Part shown: positions 30,168 through 36,005 of the stretch, piece by piece
Layout: each line of letters starts with the position of its first letter
Numbering within the stretch: position 1 is the stretch's first letter
NCBI GenBank assembly: GCA_045649145.1
Contig: JAZRPK010000068.1
Span: 1 to 59,290, forward strand
Length of the DNA: 59,290 nt
Direction of reading: 5' to 3'
Source: Clostridia bacterium
GTDB taxonomy: Bacteria; Bacillota; Clostridia; UBA1381
The notes under the pieces: generated by a model
Told to the model about the DNA's origin: nothing
What the model saw: only the letters and a program-made list of their open reading frames with translations
The model's database searches: none
Position numbers and translations under genes: made by a program

Positions 30168-30244
30168 CGGGATGTGGCTCAGTTTGGTAGAGCACTACGT
30201 TCGGGACGTAGGGGCCGCAGGTTCAAATCCTGTCATCCCGACCA
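30168..30244 (+). tRNA. tRNA-Pro (anticodon CGG)
   Basis: Cloverleaf by eye: acceptor CGGGATG/CATCCCG, D arm GCTC..GAGC, anticodon stem CTACG/CGTAG with loop TTCGGGA, T loop GGTTCAAATCC, encoded CCA. Confidence 0.9.
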
Positions 30245-30247
30245 TAT

Positions 30248-30323
30248 CGGGGTGTAGCGCAGGTGGTAGCGCACTAGACTGGGGGTCTAGGTGCCGCAGG
30301 TTCAAGTCCTGTCACTCCGACCA
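30248..30323 (+). tRNA. tRNA-Pro (anticodon GGG)
   Basis: Acceptor CGGGGTG/CACTCCG (one G-U). Anticodon stem CTAGA/TCTAG with loop CTGGGGG. T loop GGTTCAAGTCC, encoded CCA. Confidence 0.9.
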
Positions 30324-30324
30324 C

Positions 30325-30359
30325 GTCGAAGCAAAGTTCGCTTTGCTTCGACTTTTTTT
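30325..30359 (+). terminator. intrinsic terminator after the tRNA pair
   Basis: 12-bp stem GTCGAAGCAAAG / CTTTGCTTCGAC, TTCG loop, T7 run. Confidence 0.85.
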
Positions 30360-30523
30360 ATGCAAAAAAGTCATCCGCCCGCTTCCTTGCTTCTCCTCTT
30401 TCACAAAAAGTCACGCTCGGCTCACCTGTTCGGTTGTAAACGCCCTCACAACGGTTTGCTGTCGCTATCAACTTTTTGTGATTTTTTTGTTTTGATCCTT
30501 GACACGTTATGAACACCCGCACC

Positions 30524-30557
30524 AAAAAGAGTACCGACTTTTGTCGGTACTCTTTTT
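30524..30557 (-). terminator. bidirectional-looking intrinsic terminator ending the two-gene cassette
   Basis: AGAGTACCGAC / GTCGGTACTCT stem with a TTTT loop, flanked by an A-run and a T-run. 25 nt downstream of the stop at 30582. Confidence 0.75.
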
Positions 30558-30581: not shown

Positions 30582-31451
30582 TCAGAAATCGCCGTCAGGA
30601 GAAGAAACATATCTAAAGTTCCTTCTTATATCCTCTGCCAAAAAATCCTGTGGAAGAAGAGTTGTGACAGCATCCTCCTCTACGAGCTGTTTGTAGGTTT
30701 CGTCCAATTGAACCTTAAGAATACTAAAGAAAAGTTTCTGTGGTGAAATCTTGCTATCCGCTTTCAAAAACGGCTCTACCGCTTTTGAAATCCATGCATT
30801 CACCTTGCGGTTCAGGTCTCTTCCAGAAATATCCTTCTTGTTTTTCTTCGCTCTTGAAAGATATTCCATCTGTAAAAAACTCCAATACATCGAAGTTTTT
30901 GTGTTGCTACTGTACCACTCAAAGGTCTTCTGCTTCCACAAATTAATATGCTCCTCCTTGTCAGGTGACCGGCTTACACAATCAATAAACTCATCAAGTT
31001 GTGTAATAATTTCTTTTGCAGTATATGACAGTCTCTGATTCAGTTTGGCAAAATCTTCCGGTTCGCTCGGCTCGCATTTCCCAAGAAAATGCGTCAACCA
31101 CGCCTGATACTTTTCAAGACATTCCTTTTCCGATTCTCCGTTGAGTTCGCTCTGATTATGGTCAATAACCGAACGCAACATACTTATCTCATTCAACAGC
31201 ATATCCAATTTTTTGAACTTATATCTTTCATAATATGGGATATACATATACCAATGATTGATTACACAGCTTGTATCAATAACAAATTTATACAAGTCCT
31301 GAACAGATGTGATAAAGTATCCATCCTCGCTATAGGCATAACTTTTGGTAGGTGAATAATTGCAACACAAAAACAATGTCTTATCAATCTTTTCCTGAAC
31401 GGAACAGTTTAATCTTTCAGCATCTTTGTCTGTAAGCAGGGGGTGTTTCAT
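30582..31451 (-). CDS. hypothetical 289-aa protein with an Rx4H (HEPN-like) motif; partner of the large NTPase
   Basis: Its start ATG overlaps the upstream stop (ATGA at 31448-31451). No TM segment or signal peptide. LRSVIDHNQ at aa 92-100 fits the HEPN R-x4-H pattern. Otherwise no family recognised. Confidence 0.6.
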   Translation of the reverse strand: MKHPLLTDKDAERLNCSVQEKIDKTLFLCCNYSPTKSYAYSEDGYFITSVQDLYKFVIDTSCVINHWYMYIPYYERYKFKKLDMLLNEISMLRSVIDHNQSELNGESEKECLEKYQAWLTHFLGKCEPSEPEDFAKLNQRLSYTAKEIITQLDEFIDCVSRSPDKEEHINLWKQKTFEWYSSNTKTSMYWSFLQMEYLSRAKKNKKDISGRDLNRKVNAWISKAVEPFLKADSKISPQKLFFSILKVQLDETYKQLVEEDAVTTLLPQDFLAEDIRRNFRYVSSPDGDF

Positions 31452-34400
31452 ATACTTCCCTCCCTAAACTTCCGGCCAGCCTTAGTATAAACTGAGAGGC
31501 TTGTATAGCCGATACCCAATTCAAGATTATTTAGTAGCTGATTCACCTCTGGCATAGGAATATCTCTGCCAAGGTTGTAATGGCGGAAACGAACACCGAC
31601 ATCATTCCTCAAACGGAGAGGAAGGTCGTGGATTCTTATATATCCGTTATTCCCTTTTACAGTAAGAACTGTACCTGTATACAGTTTTGGTGTAGGTTCC
31701 GTAATTTCTTCAGTAATGGGAGGGCAAATCATAAACGGTGTTCTCATACGTGCATGGTAGAATTTCGCTTCATCCAGCATTGCAAGAATTTCCACCGCTT
31801 CAATATAAGACTCCTCCGACATTCTGCCGACCTGTATTGCCGCCAACGCATAAAGTAATATGATGATAGGCTGGCGATTTTCTTTTTCTATTCTGACATA
31901 TGTACGGCAATAGTCATAAATCTCATACCACTGCTCTATTGTCAGCCTTGTCAGCTGACATTCGGTATTTCCTGAAAGAGTTGTTTTGTTATAACGCATC
32001 CAAGCAACACGGATAAGCATAGCAAGTGCATAAGAATTCGAACTCACACACTCGTAATTCTTTTTATTTGTCTTAAGGAACTGATATACCCGCTCGCAAC
32101 TATCAAGTTGCTGTTTTTCCAACTTTTGTGTTCCGCTGGGGATTTTTAATTCTTTTTGACAAATAAACGTAATTGCTGAAGCGTTATTTGACTCAAGCAT
32201 ATTGTCATAAAGACGGAAAAATGCCTCCTCTTCTTCCGTTTTTGCAGGTTTTCCGTCAATGTGTCCGTAAACAGAATCAAGTGTAATTTGGAAGTTTGCC
32301 GCAATATCCCTGATTTTTGCAAGGTGTGGGCTCAATTCGTCTTTTCCGTTACCACCTCTGTTTACAATGCTTGCACCCAGATTTTCACAAATTTCCACAA
32401 GCTGCATAATTTCGCTAAGGTTCTGTATCTTTTCCTCTTCAGGCAATCCCCGTTCCTTTTCATACATTCTCTCGAACGCCTTGAACAGAGCATTATAGGC
32501 ATAGCCATTAGTCTGGTCACGGTAAATAACAGAAAGCAGTTGCTTGTAAATAGTAGGATAATGGAGCCTACGCATCAAAAGCCTGGTATCAGCATCAACG
32601 CCAAGGCACTCGCAACACTCCCTGTATTCTTCCCCATATTCCTCCAGACGCATATTACATTGTGCCGTTTCTACAACCAACGAATCACGCTGCGCCAACA
32701 AGCGACTTTTTTCCTTGGCAGAAAGTGACTGCGCCTCGGTTGTGCATCTTGTTTCTAACGCCTCAACGCCCTGCTCTGCAAGAGAGATAGCATTAACCAT
32801 CTTCTTAAGACGAAGTTCGTAATCCTCCGGTTTGAAATGCTCATGCTCATATTTGTTTATCTCTTCGTTAGCATCATTCTTTACAGGCATATAGTGGCTG
32901 TTCCAAAAAGCACCATAATATTCACGTGTGAAAGTAATCAGGATTGTAGTAAAACCTGCATCCTCATCGGGAACTCCGTAATCTTCAAGAAGATATATTA
33001 TCTTGTTTATCAGAACTTCCAACTGTGCCTGAATATTTATGTAATCAAGACTATCCTTGCGGAGCGAGAAATACTGAGAGTTCGGACCCATCAAGCGAAG
33101 AAGCGCCTGCAAGCTGTTGGTGAAATTAAGGTCCTTGCACTTACTTCTGCGATAGTCCTGTCCGTAAATATCAATAATCTTACACAAAAGATTAATCTGT
33201 TGTGTACCGCTCATATCATGTCTTTGCAGATAAATATCTGCTTCGAGAGAATTTCTGAAACTAAAAGCATAGTCACCGGTCCCTGTTTCACCATAATAAA
33301 GCCACGGCAACTCTGTCGTTACAAGCTTGAACAGTTCCTGATAACGGTTGCTGTATCTGTCAACAACATCATCTCCCAGCAGTATTGTATAGGCAAGGCT
33401 GTAGGGTACAGTCAGTTTGAATCGGCTAAACAGAGCAACACAGAGATTAAGCGTATCAAGTTTCTCTTCAAGTTCCTCAATATTATTATCATTATGCTCC
33501 TCTTCAATACCCAGTTCATCGACTGCAATTCCCGCTTTCATCATAGCAAGATACATCGGGGATGTTTTTATTTCTTCTTTAGCATCATTTTTGATGCCCT
33601 CAAGCGTCGAATCAAGTTCCTTCTGAACATACTGGAATACCTTGCTCTGCTCCTTTTTCAAGCCTTTTTCAAGATTATCTCGAAGCAACGATATGAGCTT
33701 GTAATAGTATTGGAAAATATCATCTCCAGTTATATTATCAGGCGAATTTTGTCCATTTAGCTTATTACGCATATCAGATATTGTCTTTGCGCTAATACCC
33801 GAATATTCTTTGGCAATTCTCCAGAATTCATATTTTTCATGCTCGTTCATTTCTCGGGTCGCCTTTACGTAATAGTAACCGTCTGCGGAAACCACTTGTG
33901 CTTCTTTCGAATCACAGCTTTCAAATTTATTGCCGTTTTCTGCCAGTCGATATCCGTTACCCTCCTGACCAATAATGCGGTATCCGCTACATACCAACAC
34001 AACGCGTCGTCCCTTATTTTCAAGCTCTGTCAAAAAGCGGCCCATGCGCTCTACCCCTGAAAGGTAGGTAGAACTGTCCCACACAATCAGTATACGTGTA
34101 TCGGTTACCGACTTGTCGACAATAGCCTGCAATGCTCCTTCGATTCGGTTGGTGAAATCACCGCCGACAATATCGTCATCAGATATGAAAAGAACCGGAT
34201 TGGTTTTTTCGTTGTAAATTCGATAAGCAAGCGCACCAAGTGTAATACTTTTACTGCTTCCCGGGTCTCCCGTTAATACAATGGGGCAAGGCGACGCACT
34301 ATTGCCTGTAACCCCCTTTCCTGCAAGCATAAGACGCACCAATTGAACAAGAGCATCTTCATAACTACGCTTAACATAAAAAGTTGATTGCGGCAAATAT

Positions 34401-35278
34401 CCGTACCATTGCGGACCGAACATAGAGCTTAATTCTATAAAATTGGAAAACCATTGCTGAGACTGAATTCTGCCCAGCGGTCGTACTTTATTCAATGTAC
34501 GTTCAGTCAGAAGAGTTCCTACATTGTTAAAAACCATAAGCTCTGCTCTGGAAACACTGATGGGCTTTTGTGCCTGGAAATATATGTCACTGTCATTTTC
34601 AGGCGAGTAAAGAATCTCATCTTCTTCAATTTGACTCATTTCGTCAAGTCTTGACTTGACAACCTCTGCCAATTCGGTCTCATAAAAGCCAAAGCTCTTT
34701 TCCTCAGCAACTCTTTTTAGACGGTTAAACGTACCTTCATCCATCTGAAGCTTGTCCGGCGACATACCCCAGAATGAAACAGACCCGTCAGAAGTCCTTG
34801 AATATAATAATTTTGCAAGGTACTTGTTGATAAGCTGACAGTCAATGTCCGAGTCAATGCCAATGATAACCAACGGATTTACATAATCAAGAATTTCCGG
34901 CAGTAATTCCAGCATACGACCGGCTTCTTCCATATCATATTCAGTATGACTTTCTGTGCTTAACCATGACAAATCTTCATCGTCATCTTCCGTACCGCTG
35001 ACTCCGAATAATCGCAGAACAGGTGTTTTCTCCCTACTGAGCGGTTTTGCAGACACATCCCTACGGCTGAAAAACTCCTTCGGCGAACGGTCATCATTAA
35101 CAAAAAGTGCAGAAAATTCAGGATCGCGGCGACTTGTTACAACTGCGCTCCAACGACACGTGGAAATGATATCCTTAATTTCATCATCCTTTGCGTTCTG
35201 ACCCACATACAAAATTACATGGTTGGAATTAAATTTGTTATAAAATTCGCTGGTCATTTTCTCAATATTCATTATCAC
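31448..35278 (-). CDS. 1276-aa multidomain protein: SIR2-like (degenerate) N-domain, STAND-type P-loop NTPase, long helical region, beta-rich C-terminal module
   Basis: Walker A GDPGSSKS (nt 34247-34270), Walker-B-like RILIVWDSS and sensor-like GRRVVLVCSGYR. The N-terminal layout VILYVGQN / WSAVVTSRRD / VLRLFG / LVIIGIDSDID parallels SIR2_2. The start is GTG 35278 or ATG 35272. Confidence 0.7.
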   Translation of the reverse strand: MIMNIEKMTSEFYNKFNSNHVILYVGQNAKDDEIKDIISTCRWSAVVTSRRDPEFSALFVNDDRSPKEFFSRRDVSAKPLSREKTPVLRLFGVSGTEDDDEDLSWLSTESHTEYDMEEAGRMLELLPEILDYVNPLVIIGIDSDIDCQLINKYLAKLLYSRTSDGSVSFWGMSPDKLQMDEGTFNRLKRVAEEKSFGFYETELAEVVKSRLDEMSQIEEDEILYSPENDSDIYFQAQKPISVSRAELMVFNNVGTLLTERTLNKVRPLGRIQSQQWFSNFIELSSMFGPQWYGYLPQSTFYVKRSYEDALVQLVRLMLAGKGVTGNSASPCPIVLTGDPGSSKSITLGALAYRIYNEKTNPVLFISDDDIVGGDFTNRIEGALQAIVDKSVTDTRILIVWDSSTYLSGVERMGRFLTELENKGRRVVLVCSGYRIIGQEGNGYRLAENGNKFESCDSKEAQVVSADGYYYVKATREMNEHEKYEFWRIAKEYSGISAKTISDMRNKLNGQNSPDNITGDDIFQYYYKLISLLRDNLEKGLKKEQSKVFQYVQKELDSTLEGIKNDAKEEIKTSPMYLAMMKAGIAVDELGIEEEHNDNNIEELEEKLDTLNLCVALFSRFKLTVPYSLAYTILLGDDVVDRYSNRYQELFKLVTTELPWLYYGETGTGDYAFSFRNSLEADIYLQRHDMSGTQQINLLCKIIDIYGQDYRRSKCKDLNFTNSLQALLRLMGPNSQYFSLRKDSLDYINIQAQLEVLINKIIYLLEDYGVPDEDAGFTTILITFTREYYGAFWNSHYMPVKNDANEEINKYEHEHFKPEDYELRLKKMVNAISLAEQGVEALETRCTTEAQSLSAKEKSRLLAQRDSLVVETAQCNMRLEEYGEEYRECCECLGVDADTRLLMRRLHYPTIYKQLLSVIYRDQTNGYAYNALFKAFERMYEKERGLPEEEKIQNLSEIMQLVEICENLGASIVNRGGNGKDELSPHLAKIRDIAANFQITLDSVYGHIDGKPAKTEEEEAFFRLYDNMLESNNASAITFICQKELKIPSGTQKLEKQQLDSCERVYQFLKTNKKNYECVSSNSYALAMLIRVAWMRYNKTTLSGNTECQLTRLTIEQWYEIYDYCRTYVRIEKENRQPIIILLYALAAIQVGRMSEESYIEAVEILAMLDEAKFYHARMRTPFMICPPITEEITEPTPKLYTGTVLTVKGNNGYIRIHDLPLRLRNDVGVRFRHYNLGRDIPMPEVNQLLNNLELGIGYTSLSVYTKAGRKFREGSI

Positions 35279-35340
35279 ACATCCTGTCCTTATTTTTTAA
35301 CAGTACCTACAAGGAAAAGTATATTTTGACTATTTATAAT

Positions 35341-35369
35341 AGCATATCACATTTCCATTTTAATGTCAA
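35341..35369 (-). promoter_or_regulatory. candidate sigma-A promoter of the two-gene cassette
   Basis: Minus strand TTGACA (35364-35369), N17 ending in TGA, TATGCT (35341-35346). About 60 nt upstream of the start codon. Confidence 0.5.
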
Positions 35370-35428
35370 TTGTAAACGCATAGACTTGATCGCCTGCGTC
35401 CTCCTTTGTTTTATGTCTTCATTTAATT

Positions 35429-35454
35429 AAAAAGCAACCATCAGGTTGCTTTTT
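35429..35454 (-). terminator. intrinsic terminator after niaR
   Basis: AGCAACC / GGTTGCT stem with a 4-nt loop, flanked by A/T runs. Immediately after the niaR stop at 35457. Confidence 0.7.
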
Positions 35455-35456
35455 AA

Positions 35457-36005
35457 TTATTGCAATTCTATCTCCATCGGCTCATACTCCTGAAGTGGCG
35501 CTAAAAAGCCACGCTCTTCGAGTTTCCTTTTAATAATTTCCAAAGTATCCTCATTTTCTGCACAAACAGTATGATAATGATACCCCGATGTGACATTCTT
35601 AAGCAGGCTCGACTTTCCGCTTGTTATATTGTCGATAAAATTTTTGACATCGAGCCGTGATTTGATATCCATTGTAGCTGATATTTTATTATAGAACTTG
35701 TGATAGACAAACACATCTTTTACTATGCCGCCAAGGTCAACTATGAGGTTAAGTTCCTCCTCCACCTCATCATCCGAGTGAATGAGCTTAAAAACCCGCT
35801 CGTGCTTTGACTCTTTTTCCAAAAGATATCCTCTTGCATGTGAAAGAATACCGCAGCCGTCCTTTCTGAGCATAGCTATATCCTTAACAATAATCTGCCT
35901 GCTTACCCCAAATTCTTCCGCAAGAGCAGTCGCCGAAACAGGTTTCTTTGCAAGAGTGAGGGTTTTTAATATCTCCGCTCTTCTTAGTTCTACTCTCATA
36001 GACAC
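35457..36005 (-). CDS. niaR: NAD-biosynthesis transcriptional repressor NiaR (YrxA family; HTH + 3H domain)
   Basis: 182 aa. N-terminal HTH (VSATALAEEFGVSRQIIVKDIAMLR). C-terminal 3H-like region with conserved His residues (LIHSDDEV, FVYHKFY, GYHYHTV). Downstream of nadB-nadC. Confidence 0.82.
   Translation of the reverse strand: MSMRVELRRAEILKTLTLAKKPVSATALAEEFGVSRQIIVKDIAMLRKDGCGILSHARGYLLEKESKHERVFKLIHSDDEVEEELNLIVDLGGIVKDVFVYHKFYNKISATMDIKSRLDVKNFIDNITSGKSSLLKNVTSGYHYHTVCAENEDTLEIIKRKLEERGFLAPLQEYEPMEIELQ

Follow-up and report, generated by a model that had tools for sequence, protein, structure and literature searches.

The closest described relatives of the locus considered here are STAND nucleotide-binding proteins of the SAMD9 type. 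As resolved by cryo-electron microscopy, human SAMD9 is ordered as tRNase, SIR2-like, Delta, NOD, TPR1, TPR2, and OB domains (PMC13600222), and its effector is the tRNase (PMC10246899). The SIR2-like domain of SAMD9 is unlikely to bind NAD and takes part in autoinhibition and in SIR2/SIR2 and OB/SIR2 assembly contacts (PMC13600222), and the OB domain has been likened to cold-shock proteins (PMC5445408). In bacteria, the SAMD9-like STAND proteins Avs5, Avs6, and Avs9 are defense or cell-killing proteins (PMC12680541, PMC12931631). HEPN-STAND fusions (PMC3710099) and two-gene STAND operons with HEPN effectors (PMC8195603) have also been described, and regulatory functions are common among bacterial STAND proteins (PMC5445408, PMC12803255). 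To this set we compare a two-gene cassette, at 30582-35278 on the minus strand, in a 59,290-nucleotide (nt) stretch of contig JAZRPK010000068.1 (assembly GCA_045649145.1) from a Clostridia bacterium of the UBA1381 lineage. This whole stretch is called the window below. The cassette couples a large SAMD9-like STAND NTPase to a small, separately encoded, all-helical protein.

The pair is a real, coherent two-gene accessory module. Its gene structure and architecture, the predicted fold of the first 640 residues of the large protein, the motifs of both proteins, their obligate pairing and co-divergence, and an accessory and partly mobile distribution are established directly. As a biological unit, the module is most likely a candidate anti-phage defense of the abortive-infection type. 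We give a probability of roughly 0.45 to the whole chain in which a SAMD9-type STAND sensor works with a trans-encoded, HEPN-like RNase effector in defense. We hold slightly more tentatively the description of the pair as an unnamed two-gene Avs-type system of gut Clostridia, a two-part bacterial counterpart of SAMD9 in which a dead SIR2-like head would be the oligomerization scaffold of a STAND sensor and a separate, co-evolving, translation-arresting nuclease, forming a new and structurally unrecognized branch of HEPN RNases, would be activated by induced proximity.

A preliminary description of this DNA, made from the letters alone, had proposed two overlapping minus-strand open reading frames (ORFs) with a promoter and terminator of their own, lying between a tRNA-Pro pair and the niaR-nadCB operon. 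These elements were found where it had placed them. The large ORF, at 31448-35278(-), overlaps the start of the small one, at 30582-31451(-), and the shared TCAT of the plus strand reads as ATGA at 31448-31451. The parts of the transcription unit are as follows.

31448..35278, minus strand: large gene, SAMD9-like STAND NTPase, 1276 amino acids counted from GTG 35278
30582..31451, minus strand: small gene, 289-amino-acid all-helical protein with the triad D59/R93/H98
31448..31451, minus strand: ATGA stop/start overlap, translational coupling, with overlap or abutment kept in all homologous loci
35341..35369, minus strand: promoter-like TTGACA-N17-TATGCT with a TG extension, 10/12 consensus matches
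30524..30557, no strand assigned: bidirectional hairpin terminator of the cassette, a 15-bp perfect stem with A and T runs on either side
35424..35459, no strand assigned: perfect 16-bp hairpin with a 4-nt loop, 100% complementary, just past the niaR stop codon

The large ORF can indeed be opened from the GTG at 35278 that had been named as its start, but the ATG at 35272, with an AGGA ribosome-binding site 8 nt upstream, is the likelier start. The resulting product of 1274 amino acids is the same as the public gene call (P0001). When folded as RNA, the hairpin at 30524-30557 has a z score of -5.6, and none of 200 shuffled sequences folds equally well. The hairpin at 35424-35459 is probably the terminator of niaR and would shield the cassette from upstream transcription. 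With a promoter-like site of its own and hairpins on both sides, the gene pair is therefore an insulated transcription unit.

The relationship of the large protein to SAMD9 is apparent from structure. An AlphaFold2 model covering residues 1 to 640 of 1276, built on 119 sequences, has a mean predicted local distance difference test (pLDDT) score of 88.4 and passes from a Rossmann-type head through a mixed linker and a P-loop domain into helices from residue 477. In a Foldseek comparison to the PDB, the top matches to this model are six human SAMD9 chains that include the NOD (E values of 4.7e-13 to 7e-9), aligned over about 560 to 590 of the 640 query columns with a probability of 1.0, an identity of 10 to 11%, and a query-normalized template modeling (TM) score of 0.31 to 0.33. 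Generic AAA+ ATPases rank far below, at E values of 1e-5 or weaker; the further matches include AAA+ ATPases, ORC/Cdc6, DnaA, and RFC, and neither Apaf-1 nor any NLR is among the top 50. The Thoeris SIR2 protein ThsA is also matched (8btp at 6.3e-4, 8bto at 1.6e-3, and 6lhx at 1.8e-3). The protein can be divided accordingly, with residues numbered from the GTG.

34679..35221, minus strand: SIR2-like Rossmann head, about residues 20-200, read from its strand/helix pattern (residues 22-193), the Foldseek matches, and non-catalytic motif variants
34388..34678, minus strand: linker, about residues 201-297, between head and NTPase, with residues 251-300 among the most conserved of the protein
33851..34387, minus strand: P-loop nucleotide-binding domain, about residues 298-476, with Walker A at nt 34247-34270 and Walker B at nt 34070-34096
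33359..33850, minus strand: helical region, residues 477-640, the AlphaFold2 helices that follow the NTPase
31727..33358, minus strand: middle and C-terminal region, residues 641-1184, presumed helical-repeat sensor
31451..31726, minus strand: C-terminal module, residues 1185-1276, with the pattern GTV...GFI...VRF

Profile comparisons give weaker matches, all below the gathering threshold. The Pfam family nSTAND_NTPase5 is matched by 34 of 39 diverse members of the large-protein family (best E value, 1.2e-5) and by the window protein (1e-3); nSTAND3 is matched in four of the 39 and nSTAND7 in three, and there are a few matches to AAA_16 or NPHP3_N. Together with the SAMD9 matches, this bears out the STAND-type P-loop NTPase with a long C-terminal region that had been proposed from motifs. 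The window protein has no match in NCBIfam or PADLOC, and among the 39 members PADLOC gives weak matches to mad8 in 19 (best E value, 2.6e-4). Homologs of the large protein form more than 130 clusters that are 31 to 53% identical and about 1250 to 1300 residues long, and the named ones are all annotated as hypothetical. Residues 641 to 1276 are conserved along their length, not hypervariable, and weak TPR_17 matches occur in three of the 39 members. AlbA_2 is not matched in any of the 39, and no nuclease, protease, other effector, or DNA-binding output domain was detected in the large protein with Pfam or, for effectors, with PADLOC.

The motifs quoted in the preliminary description sit at the residues given for them in both proteins, and we scored those of the large protein for conservation across 119 homologs. 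In the SIR2-like head, the family forms are hLYVG[QRK], T48-[ST]-R/C-x-D52, and [FY]91-G92. T48, D52, and G92 are retained. The sirtuin catalytic Asn is replaced by Arg or Cys, with Asn found in 8 of the 119, and the catalytic His is replaced by Phe or Tyr, with no His in any of the 119 and Asn in one. Pfam SIR2_2 is not matched in the 39 members at E values up to 1. Because the catalytic Asn and His are absent family-wide, the head is probably not an effector but, by analogy with SAMD9, a scaffold or autoinhibitory element. Thus, the degenerate SIR2-like head seen earlier is upheld as a fold by Foldseek, but its designation as effector-like has to be given up.

In the nucleotide-binding domain, the Walker A motif GDPGSSKS (residues 337-344) has the family form GxPGSSK[ST], with G337, S341, S342, and K343 invariant, and the Walker B motif RILIVWDSS (residues 395-403) has the form hhhhW-D401-[SCG]-S, with D401 invariant. 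R304, R475, and E481 are also conserved, E481 being near-invariant within the proposed lid motif, VKATREMNEHEKYEFW (residues 471-486). The segment GRRVVLVCSGYR (residues 423-434) had been put forward as the 'hhhhTxR' strand of STAND proteins, an assignment that conservation does not support, as R434, in the place of the sensor-1 arginine, is variable (Ser in 46, Arg in 18, and Asn in 14 of the 119). The conserved positions within this strand are C430, [ST]431, and Y433.

Comparison with SAMD9/SAMD9L (PDB 9zjr, 9zjs, and 9zjz), the closest structural match of residues 1 to 640, reveals a shared order of SIR2-like head, linker, and nucleotide-binding module, followed in the window protein by a long C-terminal region and what may be a small beta-rich end as in SAMD9. 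By analogy, the linker would occupy the position of the SAMD9 Delta domain, and the sequence of the C-terminal ~90 residues makes possible a cold-shock-like OB fold as at the C terminus of SAMD9. Both SIR2-like heads are without sirtuin catalytic features (PMC13600222), and a presumed RNase effector that shuts down translation is common to both (PMC13600222, PMC10246899), here as a prediction. There are also differences. The window protein has neither a SAM domain nor a fused AlbA_2 tRNase; no domain precedes the head, which begins at about residue 20. Its presumed RNase is encoded apart from it and would belong to another class of fold, being HEPN-like. Its Walker A motif is canonical, GxPGSSKS, in contrast to GGT in SAMD9. 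Similarity is undetected at the level of sequence (HMMER E value above 10): a full-length family profile compared with PDB sequences, SAMD9 chains included, found no SAMD9 at E values up to 10 and gave coiled-coil noise only.

Among the bacterial systems, Avs5 resembles the large protein in its layout, in which an N-terminal Sir2 fold leads into a STAND NTPase and then a helical sensor region at the C terminus, presumed in the case of the large protein, and Avs5 is itself SAMD9-like (PMC12931631, PMC12803255). However, the Sir2 domain of Avs5 is a catalytic NADase with the motifs GAGxS, TTNxD, and HG/NG, and N110, D112, and E202 are essential for it (PMC12931631); these motifs are lost in the window family. 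Avs5 further differs in its nSTAND3-type NTPase, as opposed to nSTAND5 in the window family (34/39, with nSTAND3 in 4/39), and in being a single gene rather than one of an obligate pair. The Avs models of PADLOC v2 match neither the window protein nor the 39 members. We therefore rejected assignment to Avs5, with which catalytic motifs, NTPase clade, and hidden Markov models all disagree. Avs9 and Avs6 have a SAMD9-like core, and killing by Avs9 needs a nuclease-type effector (PMC12680541). In these proteins AlbA_2 (Avs9) or PNP (Avs6) is fused at the N terminus, whereas the candidate effector of the window is encoded separately downstream.

The cassette had been thought to match no named system. 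PADLOC (2023) does name none, but the SAMD9-like STAND proteins (SAMD9, Avs5, Avs6, and Avs9) had been overlooked, and with these relatives the architecture of the large protein has precedent. We found no description of the family or of the combination in the literature, with the tables of the Gao et al. 2026 census of 589 STAND clades outside coverage, and that census may well contain the window NTPase. What would be new here is a split SAMD9/Avs-like system whose partner is without recognizable structural relatives; STAND-based immunity as a class is itself well known.

The small protein is all-helical, with twelve helices in an AlphaFold2 model of pLDDT 92.6. Its close homologs form 23 clusters, and when a profile was compared exhaustively with 1.84 billion representatives, the family grew to at least 275 clusters at 50% identity. 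The best 150 of the 275 are standalone proteins of about 320 to 370 residues or shorter fragments, and the named family members are all labeled hypothetical. Across 134 sequences, with a mean column identity of 16%, D59, R93, and H98 are the only invariant columns, and R93 and H98, which form the Rx4H motif, are invariant in sets of 23, 37, and 134 sequences, down to 18% identity. These residues and the core that contains them are encoded as follows.

31275-31277 / 31173-31175 / 31158-31160, minus strand: codons of D59 / R93 / H98, the invariant triad
31077..31451, minus strand: HEPN-like core, about residues 1-125, from motif and helix topology

In the model, helix 73-97 bears R93 near its end, H98 lies in the next loop, and helix 106-123 follows. 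D59 and D52 are both in the preceding helix, 42-59, with D52 at least 90% conserved among close homologs, and the segment between the two helices, residues 60-72, is indel-rich in the alignment. In HEPN domains, helix 2 carries a conserved acidic residue, and the stretch between it and helix 3 takes up variable inserts (PMC3710099). Because the placement of D59, R93, and H98 matches this arrangement, the model suggests that the N-terminal ~125 residues are a divergent HEPN-type active-site module. When set beside PrrC/RloC, RnlA/LsoA, Abi HEPNs, Csm6/Csx1, HEPN-STAND fusions, and nSTAND2 two-gene operons, the small protein shares with HEPN RNases an Rx4H motif that ends a long helix, an upstream acidic residue, an all-helical core, and a variable insert (PMC3710099, PMC8195603). 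It differs from them in having no significant profile or structural match and in its extra helices and tail, which are without a known counterpart. Beyond the core, about 160 to 240 residues form more helices and end in a conserved C-terminal LLPQD...SP..DF tail.

Two features of length variation deserve mention. The small protein of the window is without a ~70-residue internal coiled-coil segment of most homologs (around residues 225-235, nt 30800-30900), and since clusters P0126 and P0127 share this deletion, the insert appears to be dispensable. At the other extreme, a metagenome-assembled genome (MAG) of Oscillospiraceae encodes a 595-residue partner (L020:6516-8303(+)), which keeps R-x4-H-N and has extra residues mid-protein and at the C terminus; it has no match in Pfam or PHROG. 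The large protein of the same locus is the most divergent found, at 29% identity.

Evidence that the two genes belong together comes from their linkage. Scanning the genomes of 185,579 species by peptide patterns, an approach that makes the count a minimum, yielded 17 loci, to which metagenome contigs add others. In all loci retrieved, a small-protein homolog abuts or overlaps the stop codon of the large gene, and loci reached from the most divergent small proteins have the same adjacency. Over the 17 loci, the pairwise distances of one protein are correlated with those of the other, with a Mantel r of 0.884 (0/5000 permutations), and the small protein evolves faster. The translationally coupled pair first noticed in the window is thus a conserved one, adjacent in every locus examined. 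In two cases the partner is split into two ORFs, L023:13655-14619 of Faecalibacterium prausnitzii ATCC 27768 and L011:13561-14753 of a Pseudoflavonifractor MAG. The partner is intact in an IMG/VR contig 99.8% identical to the F. prausnitzii locus (L041:13655-14617), so the L023 split reflects either a frameshift peculiar to that strain or an error of assembly. Upstream of position ~8488, all similarity between L041 and L023 is lost, which marks a strain-variable flank. One IMG/VR (predicted viral) contig thus carries this F. prausnitzii locus, and tblastn against PLSDB plasmids and INPHARED phages gave no match. Homolog accessions include MBD5468158.1 and WP_314833330.1.

The family is rare, patchy, and accessory. 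Its hosts are Lachnospiraceae, Oscillospiraceae, Pseudoflavonifractor, Faecalibacterium, unclassified Clostridia, and one Coriobacteriaceae MAG, and no two loci share syntenic flanks. One is found within an element bearing three tyrosine integrases, a MobL relaxase, and HicAB, one within a conjugative element with a type IV secretion system, one adjoins a large serine recombinase, and one adjoins a DUF4062 protein. Several copies, that of the window among them, are instead on the chromosome and outside any mobile element. One locus sits amid a TIR_2 gene, a RADAR-like RdrB deaminase (PADLOC, 3e-37), PDC-S01 (1e-104), and an AHH nuclease. At L001:242-6410(+), a 1060-residue protein without a family match is followed by a 999-residue RdrB-like adenosine deaminase (PADLOC, 3e-37), with TIR_2 adjoining, in what looks like a RADAR-like pair whose protein at the RdrA position is unrecognized by the PADLOC model. 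Polysaccharide-cluster loci (L001, L006, L030, and L044) carry glycosyltransferases, epimerases, UDP-glucose dehydrogenase, VanZ, Wzz, and YfhO; such a neighborhood may mark a hotspot of regional variation or tie the pair functionally to phage receptors. A survey of homologous neighborhoods, which had been suggested as a check on the proposed defense role, returned a rare, patchy, and non-syntenic distribution with mobile or defense contexts, and polysaccharide clusters at several loci.

HEPN active sites generally form by the pairing of two Rx4H motifs, as in Cas13, Csm6, RNase L, and Ire1, and for this reason oligomerization of a sensor would be a natural on-switch for the small protein. In the mechanism that we propose, the large protein of an uninfected cell would be a closed, nucleotide-bound STAND switch. 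Recognition of a phage-derived ligand by its C-terminal region would cause it to open and oligomerize, with the SIR2-like heads serving as an assembly surface, as in SAMD9. Oligomerization would gather bound small proteins, and their Rx4H sites could then pair into active RNase centers, the small protein being in this scheme a divergent HEPN-type, metal-independent RNase with the active site D59/R93/H98. Such centers would cut tRNA, rRNA, or mRNA, and translation would stop. In this scheme we infer the role in defense, the RNase chemistry, the trigger, the binding of the large protein to the small one, and a mode of activation based on induced proximity.

Several observations weigh against this reading. 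Membership of the small protein among HEPN proteins is backed by motif and helix topology alone, without a profile or structure match. The residue after R93 is mostly S, A, or T, not the N, D, or H typical of HEPN. Foldseek, which related the first 640 residues of the large protein to SAMD9, finds nothing significant for the small one, nor do NCBIfam and PADLOC, with a best E value of 1.5 against the PDB, a Csx1-Crn2 chain only at 7.9, and nothing significant against BFVD. Pfam comparison of 134 members yields HEPN_SAV2148 as the sole HEPN-family match, in 1 of the 134 and at an E value of 0.078. Profiles of 23 and of 134 sequences return coiled-coil noise only from the PDB, and PHROGs has no match to the small protein or its family. 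The HEPN-motif partner of the preliminary description thus retains an Rx4H invariant in 134 sequences and is without a profile or structural tie to known HEPN proteins. In addition, a Rosetta-stone search found no fusion of STAND and partner among the best 150 of the 275 clusters.

For the large protein, the Walker B motif has a single acidic residue, the second being missing, and ATP hydrolysis may be weak as a result. All STAND matches in Pfam are under the gathering score (34 bits). An hhalign comparison of the C-terminal 92 residues with cold-shock protein sequences aligned the expected strands, but at a probability of 0.9%, which is not significant. With respect to context, several loci are in cell-envelope polysaccharide clusters, not in recognized defense islands. 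No defense or mobility gene neighbors the cassette in the window, which contains no integrase and no complete known system, as had been noticed from the start, and a search for att-like repeats at the cassette borders found none. The contrast in guanine-plus-cytosine (GC) content drawn earlier was overstated: the cassette has 41.0% GC, compared to a window mean of 42.7% (standard deviation of 1.5% for 4.7-kb windows; ~10th percentile), and GC at third codon positions (GC3) is 0.40 and 0.42 in the two genes, the level of guaB and niaR. We rejected a compositional anomaly on these host-like values.

Such doubts about the small protein give some room to a conflict system of another kind, in which it would be a regulator, adaptor, or co-sensor, such as an inhibitor keeping the sensor closed, and toxicity would reside within the large protein, as unusual chemistry of the head or in the C-terminal half. 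Neither profiles nor structure comparisons identify the small protein as HEPN or any enzyme, the head keeps T48, D52, and G92, Avs5 tolerates NG for HG (PMC12931631), and half of the large protein is structurally uncharacterized. Nevertheless, we consider this arrangement unlikely. All active Sir2 NADases have an Asn and a His/Asn that the head lacks, Pfam SIR2_2 does not match it in any member, and neither Pfam nor PADLOC finds an effector domain in the large protein. Moreover, an invariant D, R, and H in HEPN-like placement is a catalytic-type pattern, not that of an interface.

Less likely still is an addiction or stabilization module of mobile elements, an HEPN-like toxin restrained by the large NTPase with no dedicated phage sensing. 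The homologs inside integrative and conjugative elements and beside recombinases would fit such a module, as would a toxin-like gene that is downstream and translationally coupled, and HEPN toxins are common in toxin-antitoxin (TA) systems (PMC3710099). On the other hand, a multidomain STAND protein of ~1270 residues far exceeds any antitoxin and is built as a ligand-sensing switch, and the chromosomal copies, in the window and at several other loci, are not within a mobile element. As TA and defense roles overlap, this explanation is only partly distinct from defense.

A non-conflict role, for example as a STAND-type signaling or RNA-processing regulator tied to envelope polysaccharide synthesis, is improbable. 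In its favor, at least four homologous loci are within or beside capsule or cell-wall polysaccharide clusters, the window copy is among housekeeping genes with host-like GC3, and many bacterial STAND proteins are regulatory (PMC5445408, PMC12803255). Against it, the loci are exceedingly few and scattered across the phylogeny (17 among ~186,000 species genomes), their flanks are non-syntenic, some copies ride on mobile elements and one sits in a RADAR/TIR/PDC-S01 island, Pfam reveals no output domain that would bind DNA, and polysaccharide loci are themselves variable hotspots.

The surroundings of the cassette are housekeeping genes. Its flanking genes are guaB (Pfam IMPDH), niaR, nadC, nadB, and nadA, and the remaining window is housekeeping, with histidine biosynthesis, IMPDH, GidA, NadA, KARI, IF-2, NusA, LuxS, and ApbE. 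On the downstream side lie the tRNA genes.

30168..30323, plus strand: tRNA-Pro(CGG) and tRNA-Pro(GGG), flanking context outside the module, with their own terminator at 30325-30352

A ~170-nt spacer (30353-30523) separates the tRNA-Pro terminator from that of the cassette and contains no ORF of note and no Rfam match; Rfam finds only tRNAs across the whole window. Elsewhere in the window PADLOC gives scattered single-component matches only. Those outside 30582-35278 are mad2 (3e-26), RT-Protease_XI, MzaA, a pVip-like protein, a PN-superfamily effector, and WYL, and they are probably housekeeping paralogs (radical SAM, PNP_UDP_1, and peptidase U32). No identical GuaB is on record in the databases. 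Metagenome relatives of NiaR are 51 to 63% identical (the nearest sampled, ~57%) and keep nadA/B/C-niaR; downstream of niaR in these relatives there is no guaB, tRNA-Pro, or cassette, synteny being lost past niaR.

SAMD9 and SAMD9L are medically important human antiviral and disease genes whose activation is only now being resolved. If the reading proposed here is true, the cassette, which shares the SIR2-like/NTPase core but has its effector on a polypeptide of its own, would provide a compact and tractable model for how a dead SIR2-like domain and STAND oligomerization switch on an RNase. Lachnospiraceae, Oscillospiraceae, and Faecalibacterium, abundant gut anaerobes with few validated anti-phage systems, would gain a defense family, and the small proteins, with their 275 or more clusters, would acquire a function.

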